A program made the translations under genes and the position numbers. The notes beneath the pieces were generated by a model. It was given only the letters and a program-made list of their open reading frames with translations, did no database searches and was not told the DNA's origin. 64,000 nucleotides of DNA from Heterodontus francisci (lineage: Eukaryota): assembly GCF_036365525.1 (NCBI RefSeq), contig NC_090411.1:32954804-33018803 (forward strand), written 5' to 3'. Positions 51,898 through 58,328 of this stretch are shown piece after piece; positions within the stretch are counted from its first letter, which is position 1; each line of letters opens with the position of its first letter.

Positions 51898-53377
51898 AGA
51901 AGTGGTTGAGATAAATAGCATCGATGCATTTAAGAGGAAGCTGGATAAACACGAGAGAGAAAGGAATAGAAGGATATGCGACGTTGTAGGGTGGGAGGAG
52001 GCTCGTGTGAAGCATAAACACAGGCATAAACCAGCTGGTCTGAATGGCCTGTTTCTGTGCTGCAAGCTCTAGATAATTCCAAATGATCTTTCCCTAGCTG
52101 GCATTGATTCAGGGAGGAATTTTGGCTGGGACCCTCATCCTCTTTGATTAGTGCCTGCAATATTCTACATCCAAACCAAACTACAACCAAACAACATTTA
52201 TATAACACCTTTAATGCATAAAAGTATCCCAGATGCTTAGAAGTGAATGGGAATTTAATGGACTCCAATTCAACTAAGGGCTGATAAGAAGGATGCCACA
52301 AAATTTTGTCAGAGGTGGGTTTCAAGGTGGACGTTAAAGGAGGATAAGGAGCTACCGGATAAGGCAGACAGGGCCACTGCTGAACGTCTGACCTGTGGGT
52401 CGACACTTCTGATAATGCAGCACTCCCTCAGTCAGCCGAAGTGACCTGTCCTAATCCTGGAGCAGGGATTGAACCCATAACCTCGTGTCTCAGAGTATCT
52501 GGATGAGCCAAGCTGACAAGTGGAGGCGGTGGCGCAGTGGTAGTGTCACTGGACTAGCAACCCAGAGCTCCAGGCTGATGGTCTGGGGACATGGGTTCGA
52601 ATCCCACCACAGCAGATGGTGAAATTTGAATTCAATTAAGAAATCTAGAATTAAAAGCTAGTCGAGGAGTGACCATGAAACCATTGTCGATTGTTGTAAA
52701 AATCCATCTGGTTCACTAATGCCCTTTAGGGAAGGAAATCTGCCATCCTTTCCTGGTCTGGCCTACATGTGACCCCAGACCCACAGCAATGTGGTTGACT
52801 CTTAAATGCCCTCCGAGATAGCCAAGCAAGCCACTCCATTGCATCAAACTGATGCGAAGTCCAAGAAAAGGAATGAAACCGGACAGACACCTGGCATCAA
52901 CCTAGGCACTGGAAACGTCAACAGCAAACAGCAACGGTACAAAATGTACTCTGAGTGGCGGACTTCAATGTCTATCATCAAGAGTGGCTTGGTAGTATCT
53001 CTACTGACCAAGCCCTCAAGGACATAGCTGCTAGACTGAGTCTGCGGCAGGTGGTGAAGGAACCAACAAGAGGGAAAAACCTACTTGACCTCGTCCTCAA
53101 TCTACCTGTCACAGATGCATCTGTCCATGACAGTATTGGTAGGATGGCCACCTCACAGACCTTGTGGAGACAAAGTCCATTCTTCACACTGAGGGTACCC
53201 ACCATCGTGTTGTGTGGCACTACCACTATGCTAAATGGGATCGATTTTGAACAGATCTAGCAACTCAAAACTGGGCATCCATGAGGTGCTGTGAGCTATC
53301 AGCAGCGGCAGCAGAATTGTATTCAACCACAATCTATAACCTCACGGCCTGCATATCCTCCACTCTACCATGAGCAT

Positions 53378-54331
53378 TGTTACGACCGAGGCAGGAGGGG
53401 TGCCTGTCTTTTCTAGTTCCACTTCTCCACAGGTCACAACATATATTTTAATGTTTACCCAGTTACCGAAATGGTCAATCATAGACTCTACTCTTTATCC
53501 CAGAATAAAATACACCAACCAGGTTTCATTAATAAACAACAAAATTATCATAAAACAAGACATAACCAGTTTCGAAGCAAAGCATTAACACACATATTGA
53601 AATATGAAAGTTCCCTTTTACCTTAGCCCCTCTCATACAAACACAATAACTGAAAAAAATAGATTTTCTTTTTAGAGCTCTGTTACAAAAAAAAGACAAA
53701 AAACAACTTTGGCCAAATACTTGCTAATTCTTGAAGAAAAAGAGCTTGAGCTATGCAAAGATGTCAGATCTCCTTTATTTGGTTCGGTGTCCCAAATACG
53801 CGTAGATGGCTGTCACTGGGATCTTTCTCTGGAGCAATTCATTAAGGTGGCATCAAGGATTTAACCGGCAGGATTTCCCAGCATCTCAGAAGAAATGCAG
53901 CCTTTCAGGAGGAATGCATCATCAATTTCTCTATTTTTTATACTTGCTTCTAAGAGTTTCTCAAAGAGACAGAAAAACTGGCAGGCTTTTGACAGAGATG
54001 GAACAAGCTGAGCTGGGGTTTTGTCCTTCAGGTTGATTTTTAAAACTCCAACTGAATGCCCAAAACGAAACCAAAATATCTCAAGAGTGAAGCCTACTGA
54101 CCCCTATAAATCTTGACCTGTCACTTCTCTGTAAACATCTCCAAGAAAAAAAGCCCCTGCTGGGTATTTATCTGAAGACAGATGACCTCCAGTACATGTT
54201 GTTTGTAAACAAGACCTCTCAGTCCTTTCAATCACCCGAGTAAAAAAAAAAATCCATGGACTCCTTTTCAGTTTTCCCAAATGAAACACAAGTCCTCAAA
54301 ATTTAACAAAAAATGGAAGTACTTTCATACA
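53378..54331. mobile_element. Probable solo LTR
   Basis: TGTTACG...CATACA termini with 4-bp TSD gcat/ccat; cleanly interrupts the host LINE. Confidence 0.72.
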
Positions 54332-56213: not shown

Positions 56214-57160
56214 AAGAACACAAGAAATAGGAACAGAAGTAGACCATATGGCCCATTGACCTTGCTCCGCCATTCAGTACAATCATGACTGATCTTGGGC
56301 TTCAATTCCACCTTCCTGCCCGCTCCCCGTATTCCTTCATTCCCTACAAAGCCAAAAATCTATCTATCCCAGCCTTAAATTGTATTCAATGATGGAGCAT
56401 TCACAACGCCTCTGGGATAGACAATTCCAAAGATTCACAACTCTTTGAGTGAAGTAATTTCTCCTCATCTCAGTCCTGAATGATTGACCCCTTATCCTGA
56501 GACTGTGTCCCCGTGATCTAGATTCCCTGACCAGTGGAAACAATCTCTCAGCTTCTACCCTGTCAAGCCCTTTCAGAATCTTGTATGTCTCAGTTAGATC
56601 ACCTCTCATTCTTCTAAACTCCAGAGAATATGGGCCCAATTTACTCAGCCTCTCATCATAGGACAACCCCCTCATCCCAGGGTCCAATTTAGTAAATCTT
56701 CACTGCACTGCCTCCAGTGCAAGTATATCCTTTCTTAAATGTGGAGACCAAAACTGCACACAGTATTCCAGATGCGGTCTCACCAAAGCCCTGTACAATT
56801 TTAGTAAGACTTCTTTATTTCTGTACTCCAATCCCCTTGCAATAAAGGCCAACATGCCATTTGCCTTCCTAATAGCCTGCTGCACCTGCATGTTAACTTT
56901 GTGTGTTCCTTGTCCAAGTTCCTCTAAGTCTCTCTGAACATCAACACTTAACAATTTCACACCTTTTAAAAAATATTCTGCTTTTCTTTTTTTATGACCA
57001 AAGTGAACAACTTCACACTCCCCTACATTATACTCCATTTGCCATCTTGTTGCCCATTCACTTAACCTGTCTATATCTCTTTGCAGCCTCTCTCCATCCT
57101 CATCACAGCTTACCTTTCCACCGAGCTTTGTATCACAGGCAAACTTAGATTCGTTACTCT
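56214..57160 (-). mobile_element. CR1 3' fragment
   Basis: [16 protein letters not shown] and RVVNLWN motifs; interrupts the host LINE 3' end. Confidence 0.9.
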
Positions 57161-58328
57161 AAGGCAGCTCACCACCACCTTCTCAAGGGCAATTAGGGAT
57201 GGGAAATAATTGCTGGCCTAGCCAGCGACGCCCACATCCCCCGAACAAATTTTAAAAAGTGGTGGTTATAGGTCTGCCAATGATGGCGGGGAGATGACTT
57301 AGAATATTGCACAACCTGTGTGTGGAGTTCCTCCTGTGCACTCCGTTGGCACGGAATGAAATATTGTTGGCACAGAGTGAAATATAGTTGGTGACAATGT
57401 TGTAAAGATGACTGCAGCAGACTGCACAGAGCAAAACAGTACAGAGTAAAAAGAGCCACAAGCAATTAAGCCCTCTGATTTGCGTTACGCTGATGTGTTA
57501 TTGTGGTGGGGTCACATGCAGAAAAGTATTGACTGCAACTACAGAGAGGAAGCAAGAGAATGCAGACAGGTTAGAACATGAAGAGAGAGCCCATGCAGGA
57601 AAAATAATAGGCAGCATAAAAATAAACTCTTTCAAAATTAAATAAGACGTGTGCAAGGAGGAGGGGAAGACAGGCAGACGTGGGCCGGGGAGACGGGCAG
57701 ACAGACACACATGGAGGCCGTTTGGAGAGTCTGTCGAACTAAGCTACAGTAATGTTCCTTTAGATCTGAAATAAACTACCCAGAAGAAAGGAAGAAGCGA
57801 GAAATTGAACCACAAGAGACAACAGAAAAGGAGAATTTTCAGGCCCACAGAATTTGCAGCGGAGCGATTTACAAATGCAACTGCACGTTGGTGGGGGGGG
57901 GTTCTAAGATCAGTCTGAGAGGGACTCCCCTTCCCCACAGCATGGCTAGGATAATTCAATATCAGCCTGGCTTCAAAGTGATGCTGGTGCCCAGATTCCC
58001 ATGGTAACCGGCAAAATCCCCAGAGCAAACCTGCCAGCAGCCAGGAAAAACAGAGGGAAAGAGAGACTTGAAAGGCATGTAATTTACACAGCACCTTTCA
58101 CTACCTCAGAGCATCCCAAACTACTTCAACAGCCAACAGATTACTCATTGTACAATGTAGTCACTGTTGCATAGGTACACAACTGCAGCGGTAGGTCCGC
58201 GTTCCGGCAATCCTTTACCCACCCAGCACTTTCACAGTTGAAATACTTAACTGCTCTGGCCTGGGCGGTTTGCTGAATTCATCTCTTAATGGCAGTATGA
58301 CAATGCAATTAATGAACTCGCAGTAAAA

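Follow-up and report, generated by a model that had tools for sequence, protein, structure and literature searches.

A tRNA-headed Zenon retrotransposon of sharks and rays with a single open reading frame and no AUG start codon

Results

Two broken copies of one retrotransposon

The window analyzed here is a 64,000-nt stretch of the 6.0-Gb genome of Heterodontus francisci (NCBI RefSeq assembly GCF_036365525.1, contig NC_090411.1, positions 32,954,804 to 33,018,803 of the forward strand), and it holds two insertions that begin with a tRNA-like head and continue into a long interspersed nuclear element (LINE). Both are broken copies of Zenon, an abundant retrotransposon of sharks and rays; the repeats of this genome match shark and ray proteins and consensuses. 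Copy A lies on the minus strand and copy B on the plus strand, and both begin with the same 396-nt region at 85% identity, with A and B boxes at both and a tRNA called by ARAGORN at 52525-52615, in agreement with a preliminary description of this DNA, in which the two insertions were said to start with the same head. That description also read copy A as a contiguous series of head, apurinic endonuclease-like (APE) domain and reverse transcriptase (RT), however, neither copy is contiguous, and deletions and nested insertions are present in both (Table 1).

Family coordinates refer to a 3,298-nt majority sequence built from 28 uninterrupted copies. Copy A covers family 1-1086, 2269-2313 and 2308-3287, lacks 1087-2268 and contains about 3.8 kb of nested CR1 pieces, and the APE motif KVLL-N-IWG, previously placed at about 15254, begins near 15221. 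The segments of copy B omit family 410-812, i.e., the N-terminus of APE, and are separated by two nested insertions, of which that at 53378-54330 is AT-rich, with TG near its start and CA at its end, and is possibly a solo long terminal repeat (LTR). The AAGTGG described on both sides of copy B is present at 52518-52523 and 57257-57262, but it overlaps the first GG of the element and the poly-A, and the true duplication is therefore only 4-6 bp.

Table 1 Zenon-derived and nested features of the window (positions are those of the window)
Feature	Position	Strand	Remarks
Copy A, tRNA-like head with long variable arm	15557..15653	-	A box 15643-15633, B box 15580-15570
Copy A, conserved leader common with the SINE	15339..15556	-	terminal ATG-GCC-TAG (15354-15346) within a hairpin with 7-nt anticodon-like loop (15353-15339)
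Copy A, site of the family GCT triplet	15319..15321	-	ACT here via CpG decay; putative codon mimic preceding the likely non-AUG start
Copy A, 5' part of open reading frame: basic N-terminal tail and APE endonuclease	14568..15318	-	frameshifted; motif I near 15221
Copy A, short RT piece (family 2269-2313)	14526..14570	-	after 1.18-kb internal deletion
Nested CR1-type fragments inside copy A, foreign to the element	10697..14525	.	
Copy A, C-terminal half of RT, 3' untranslated region and (TGAA)n/poly-A tail	9727..10696	-	
Copy B, head and leader (family 1-409)	52522..52929	+	A box 52530-52540, B box 52594-52604
Copy B, C-terminal part of APE (family 813-1270)	52931..53377	+	family 410-812 deleted
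Unrelated ~0.95-kb insertion in copy B	53378..54330	.	gap in family match
Copy B, linker and RT (family 1266-3199)	54331..56218	+	decayed
Nested CR1 3' fragment in copy B	56219..57160	-	
Copy B, 3' end and tail (family 3198-3295)	57161..57258	+	4-6 bp target duplication with 52518-52523
Third copy, 5'-truncated (family 1648-3298)	24798..26390	+	older, 85%
Old decayed SINE-form copy, leader joined straight to tail	3320..3530	-	ends approximate

Head, leader and reading frame form one inserted unit

The element is 3.3 kb long and has thousands of copies. It consists of the head with its A and B boxes, a leader, one open reading frame (ORF) for APE and RT, and a tail with a short TGAA repeat followed by an A-run. 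Among 39 loci selected by head and ORF start, 28 run from head to tail without interruption, at a mean of 3.7% from the majority. A second set of 49 copies was selected by the ORF instead (20 chosen for long ORFs out of 111, and 29 from another search); 33 of these extend to the start of the head, 11 stop within the 5' region and five within the ORF, and no alternative common 5' end was found among them, bar one pair of duplicated loci and a single repeat in common. The join of leader and ORF gave 6,797 exact-flank matches with one junction, and in 15 of 50 head-to-tail copies the flanks continue each other within another repeat copy. The head-ORF junction is thus constant among copies, and chance nesting of a SINE and a LINE is rejected on the uninterrupted loci, the shared junction and the continuity of flanking repeats. 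Target-site duplications do not characterize the family: the length distribution in the 50 head-to-tail copies is only slightly above that of shuffled pairs, a script found duplications of at least 6 bp in 0/50, and insertion junctions are, by eye, blunt or 1-6 bp.

The absence of room for an ORF1 was confirmed, since none fits the window copies and an upstream ORF1 is ruled out by the lack of any longer 5' end in the copies examined. In one natural copy, a frame of 993 codons with APE and RT domains is still open, and Pfam Exo_endo_phos was matched on natural copy L070. Between the majority ORFs of old and young subfamilies, 68 codons differ synonymously and 37 nonsynonymously; the ORF is under purifying selection. 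The fixed unit of head, leader, ORF and tail supports the proposal of an autonomous LINE with a tRNA-like head. It might be argued that headed copies are passengers or chance nestings and that the enzyme comes from a headless master driven by a promoter of its own, as copies were only sampled and searches score the best candidates. The single junction in 6,797 matches, the lack of another shared 5' end in the ORF-selected copies, the purifying selection between headed subfamilies and the occurrence of this head in five species of sharks and rays make this extremely improbable. A search for a separate headless family with a copy of 69% identity retrieved the same family only.

The family is the elasmobranch Zenon

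The window family corresponds to the elasmobranch Zenon that Stuart et al. 2026 (PMC13343379) describe; they report Zenon from elasmobranchs, coelacanth and hagfish as an element that lacks ORF1 and carries poly-A. The name 'CR1-Zenon like LINE' is also found in bioRxiv 10.1101/443036. The published elasmobranch element is, as here, about 3.3 kb long with a single ORF, no ORF1 and a poly-A tail, and the CarCar, HypSab, RhiTyp, ScyCan and SquAca consensuses, compared by eye over the first 400 nt, match the window family there. The head stands at the start of 7/7 elasmobranch consensuses, which represent five species, with gaps in two of the seven, and is absent from the starts of the hagfish and coelacanth consensuses (by eye). 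The family with its single ORF is already in print, and the head stands in its consensuses, but the available text, searched by word, gave no match for tRNA, polymerase III, promoter or start codon, and the available supplement none for tRNA. No tRNA-headed coding LINE turned up in the literature searched, with Repbase, Dfam and most subscription papers beyond that search, and no paper matching the motif strings of the element was found there. Zenon is a known family, and the tRNA head, the loss of T-runs, the missing AUG and the companion SINE are apparently additions to it.

Within the CR1 group, the element is Zenon and not canonical CR1/L2, the type named in the preliminary description. 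Its nearest full-length proteins are 36-39% identical, and the named clusters come from sponge, lancelet and moth. In a quick RT tree, which took 65 of 197 rows with no labeled Zenon reference among them, the element falls into a 34-row clade with moth, lancelet and sponge proteins (support 97 in the Shimodaira-Hasegawa-like approximate likelihood ratio test, SH-aLRT), apart from the CR1 of the window; the clade includes a moth protein that we label Zenon-like. About 220 aa of the element also occur in P0005, annotated as a shark aldo-keto reductase and probably a gene-model artefact. Searches for DNA of distant relatives gave one weak locus in metagenomes, one in prokaryote contigs and none in viral contigs, and none was used.

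A companion SINE shares head and tail

Head 1-319 is fused to tail 3220-3298 in 2,535 exact junction matches, which defines a short interspersed nuclear element (SINE). A full head is present in 20 of the 30 copies fetched, and in these heads are found sites diagnostic of young as well as of old LINE subfamilies, which indicates repeated head exchange or repeated deletion. The LINE may have captured the head of a SINE, or the SINE may have arisen from the LINE by deletion. The same joint appears in contigs from four public runs, with a second breakpoint nearby. A 66-bp Meta domain as in MetaSINEs was sought after the head; there is no likeness by eye to the available bivalve Meta alignments, and five motifs were not found. 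As in SINE2 elements, the head is tRNA-derived with A and B boxes, but the element, with its 3.3 kb and 975 codons, is neither short nor non-coding, and only the companion derivative is both.

Comparable derivatives are known. Lepidopteran Zenon is likewise ~3.3 kb long and has a short derivative, Persaeus, made of its 5' and 3' ends by internal deletion; Persaeus, however, shows neither tRNA homology nor a Pol III promoter (PMC6740152), whereas the shark LINE and SINE both carry the head. The bipartite LINE-derived tRNA SINEs Bov-tA, AfroSINE and SINE2-1_ACar combine a tRNA head with LINE 5' and 3' parts, like the companion SINE, but there the head is found on the non-coding element only, with RTE or Vingi partners (PMC5786205), and here it is the coding LINE that is headed.

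A tRNA-type promoter and avoidance of T-runs

With a relaxed threshold, ARAGORN recognizes 37/39 family heads as tRNA-like, 35 of them as Thr(AGT), and Rfam gives a weak tRNA-Sec match (E 0.041, under the gathering score). The A-box consensus is matched in 32 and the B-box consensus in 31 of the 39 copies, and the boxes lie about 10 nt from a sharp 5' end.

The sense strand of the majority sequence contains no run of four T (T4), as had been predicted, and six T3 runs, compared with 15 A4, 13 C4 and 7 G4. Within the ORF, four runs of at least three T are observed against 12.7±2.7 under a synonymous-codon shuffle (0/500 shuffles as low), and windows with four T in five positions number one against 8.8 expected; A, C and G runs are normal under the same shuffle, and no T-run depletion is seen in the CR1, Tx1 and RTE ORFs of the window. 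A set of 26 older copies, whose best matches to the majority are below 90.5%, gives the same six T3 sites and no T4, although single copies pick up T4 after insertion (32/82). The 1-2 TTTT runs per copy counted earlier apply only to the element-derived segments (one plus the tail run, and three), the two intervals as a whole holding 15 and 18 runs of T>=4. Phe makes up 1.85% of the ORF protein, which is below 32/33 clade relatives. The single lower value, 1.54%, belongs to P0092 of Branchiostoma lanceolatum, possibly a second Zenon of the Pol III type.

The loss of T-runs fits, if indirectly, the avoidance of terminators of RNA polymerase III (Pol III). The transcript could instead stem from RNA polymerase II (Pol II), through a promoter in the leader or host read-through, with the head a relic or an RNA structure only and T-runs avoided for other reasons such as RNA stability or premature processing; this is unlikely, and a non-canonical translation start would still be needed. 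LINEs are generally held to be Pol II transcripts (PMC5786205), and the T4 depletion is by itself weak. In the hairpin of the variable arm, moreover, pairing is kept with differing letters among the published consensuses (by eye), which suggests that the head is selected both as RNA and for its role as promoter. What disfavors a Pol II transcript is that the A and B boxes are retained, that the 5' end lies where Pol III would start, and that the depletion is restricted to T-runs of the sense strand and absent from three other LINE ORFs.

The reading frame lacks a start codon

Overlooked in the preliminary description is that the ORF has no AUG start. The 975-codon frame opens after ATG-GCC-TAG (family 297-305), and its first Met is codon 285, past APE. 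Ten ATGs occur within the first 480 nt of the majority sequence, eight of them before 297. The TAG at 303 is kept in 42-46/52 head-selected young copies, with no common diagnostic variants in the exceptions, and in young as well as old subfamilies ATG-GCC-TAG-CAA is conserved and shares the frame of APE (147 nt); TAG is the source state. A-to-I editing of UAG is not supported, with only 1 TGG among 98 copies, and a master lineage with a sense codon at 303 is rejected, as the non-TAG copies have no variants in common beyond background. The T of this TAG is mutated in 5/52 unselected young copies, compared with 2.9% at comparable T sites.

Because TAG is the source state and in frame with APE in older subfamilies, readthrough was a candidate. 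Translation would then start at AUG297, which has a strong context, and reach the ORF by leaky readthrough of UAG or by AUG-independent reinitiation after the Met-Ala mini-ORF, on either Pol III or Pol II RNA. The conservation of ATG-GCC-TAG-CAA is in favor of this route, and R2 also has a conserved stop before its ORF (PMC3414825). However, a TAA at family 321-323 is found in 423 copies, against 47 for the TAG control, and 19 of 20 fetched loci, which were selected for one linked haplotype, form a younger coherent subfamily with private variants, 2.4% from its own majority. The ORF of this subfamily is otherwise open, and its changes are synonymous in 27 cases and nonsynonymous in 22. A coherent subfamily with two in-frame upstream stops argues against readthrough. 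This TAA is also carried by each of the three Squalus consensuses, the distance from TAG to GCT is short by 1 nt in the Rhincodon consensus, and eight AUGs precede 297. Readthrough of UAG thus appears largely excluded, and a start at AUG297 by either route is improbable.

The A-rich stretch that follows GCT is of full length in 77, three nucleotides shorter in 13 and otherwise altered in 10 of 100 among the matches listed, and after 333 it varies in steps of three in the subfamilies here and in 4/5 published species. Together with the two upstream in-frame stops, this places the start most likely between family 324 and about 350, where there is no AUG and no conserved near-cognate codon. Translation is likely to begin without AUG near the invariant GCU. 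The APE frame yields a basic tail resembling that of the relatives P0087 and P0002. In P0003, from a Sycon ciliatum cluster, the called Met falls inside APE motif I, so that this relative may also lack an upstream AUG.

Very unlikely is a start at the out-of-frame AUG352 with a -1 frameshift into the APE frame, or on a spliced RNA that supplies the start. AUG352 has a good context, is found in 6/7 published consensuses and is in frame with GCT in one Squalus consensus, but ATA stands there in four of the most diverged loci listed (L110, L162, L164/L079, L180), no canonical slippery heptamer was seen, and the basic tail shared with relatives is encoded in the APE frame. For splicing, no GT-AG joint occurs among the 15 matches listed of 2,822.

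A leader hairpin resembling the anticodon arm

The TAG stop lies in a hairpin, within its 7-nt loop. Compared with the anticodon arm of older heads, this hairpin is identical at 12/15 letters and has C-G in place of A-U as its closing pair. The loop letters AGC are complementary to an invariant in-frame GCT at family 330. ATG-GCC-TAG occurs in 6/7 published elasmobranch consensuses, and GCTA in 7/7 while its neighbors vary (by eye). In the intergenic region (IGR) internal ribosome entry sites (IRESs) of dicistroviruses, pseudoknot I (PKI) consists of an anticodon-like loop and a complementary triplet, and three pairs suffice weakly (PMC3517527). Between the 3' end of the head and the leader, an 8-bp long-range helix (family 88-95 with 218-225) has A-U in young and G-C in older copies, a change confounded by CpG decay. 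No triple-pseudoknot model with PKII and PKIII was obtained from the leader.

Other features of the window

A CR1-type ORF2 with 881 open codons (60969-63614, +) served as a control. The fragments at 26912-28645 (+), 29432-30145 (+) and 47604-48779 (-), which we take to be Tx1-like and RTE-like LINEs, provided two further controls. A second tRNA-like ARAGORN call at 60719-60791 (-) is probably another SINE head, a short-unit tandem repeat at 37530-38100 has long open frames on both strands, and a 238-codon open frame at 44928-45644 (-) reads like a host-gene exon.

Discussion

The tRNA-type promoter, the avoidance of U-runs and the lack of a start codon together point to a coding RNA that Pol III likely makes and whose translation likely bypasses the usual initiation, and the case for both, strong as it is, is one made from sequence. 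We favor, with a probability of about 0.6, a Zenon LINE that is autonomous, has a single ORF and an integral tRNA-derived head, is likely transcribed by Pol III and likely starts translation at a non-AUG codon set by RNA structure in the leader. In such a cycle, TFIIIC would bind the A and B boxes, and Pol III would probably make a 3.3-kb uncapped RNA without ever meeting a T4 terminator. Ribosomes would then enter internally, very probably between family 324 and about 350. The hairpin, like a second copy of the head's anticodon arm, would set the start through pairing of its AGC loop with GCU at 330, in the manner of PKI of dicistrovirus IGR IRESs, a step that we regard as tentative. By target-primed reverse transcription the APE-RT protein would make copies of the RNA, and it would mobilize the SINE with the same head and tail as well. 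That the 3.3-kb coding RNA made by Pol III carries a complete initiator-free, IGR-like IRES, derived from a duplicated tRNA anticodon arm, is still more doubtful.

Several observations weigh against this interpretation. Covariation of AGC with GCU is absent, since the pairing is invariant; family positions 37/38 are unpaired, unlike in the dicistrovirus CrPV; and the only apparent compensatory pair, 90:223, falls at CpG sites. The leader of one copy matched no Rfam IRES family at E<=10, and the 5' region of one copy folds no better than shuffles (z -1.15). Depletion of runs of T>=4 in the ORF, predicted earlier relative to codon-shuffled controls, has the expected direction (0 against 2.0-3.6) but is marginal alone (P 0.01-0.08, and 0.05-0.08 against codon shuffles), and the three control ORFs are other LINEs of the window, none a headless Zenon. 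In Squalus consensuses, which look gappy, 17 and 10 nt follow GCT, which are not multiples of three. CR1-group enzymes are able to act in trans, and the TAA subfamily might therefore be mobilized by the enzyme of others. The public runs were examined as contigs, which are uninformative on start, strand and polymerase.

Two systems offer functional parallels. Dicistrovirus IGR IRESs, to which the likeness is one of possible working only, use a non-AUG start adjoining an anticodon-like loop and a complementary in-frame triplet (PMC3517527), but the shark leader has no Rfam match, no PKII/PKIII, three to four rather than five loop pairs and no covariation. A looser parallel is R2, a non-LTR element with one ORF that does not depend on normal mRNA transcription; a conserved stop precedes its ORF, and an IRES has been proposed for it. 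It differs in being site-specific, co-transcribed with rRNA and ribozyme-excised, and in lacking a tRNA promoter (PMC3414825).

LINEs are usually described as coding Pol II transcripts and SINEs as non-coding Pol III transcripts (PMC5786205). If the present reading is correct, Zenon would be a natural and long-lived case of protein production from uncapped Pol III RNA, in which the choice of codons and amino acids has been shaped by terminator avoidance. The birth of SINEs by internal deletion would have a direct route, and exchange of heads between LINE and SINE would be shown. The 350-nt leader would be a small module, possibly useful in Pol III-driven protein expression. On the more doubtful reading with an IGR-like IRES, the line drawn between LINEs and SINEs by their promoters would be erased, and a cellular, non-viral, initiator-free IRES would have been kept across sharks and rays.

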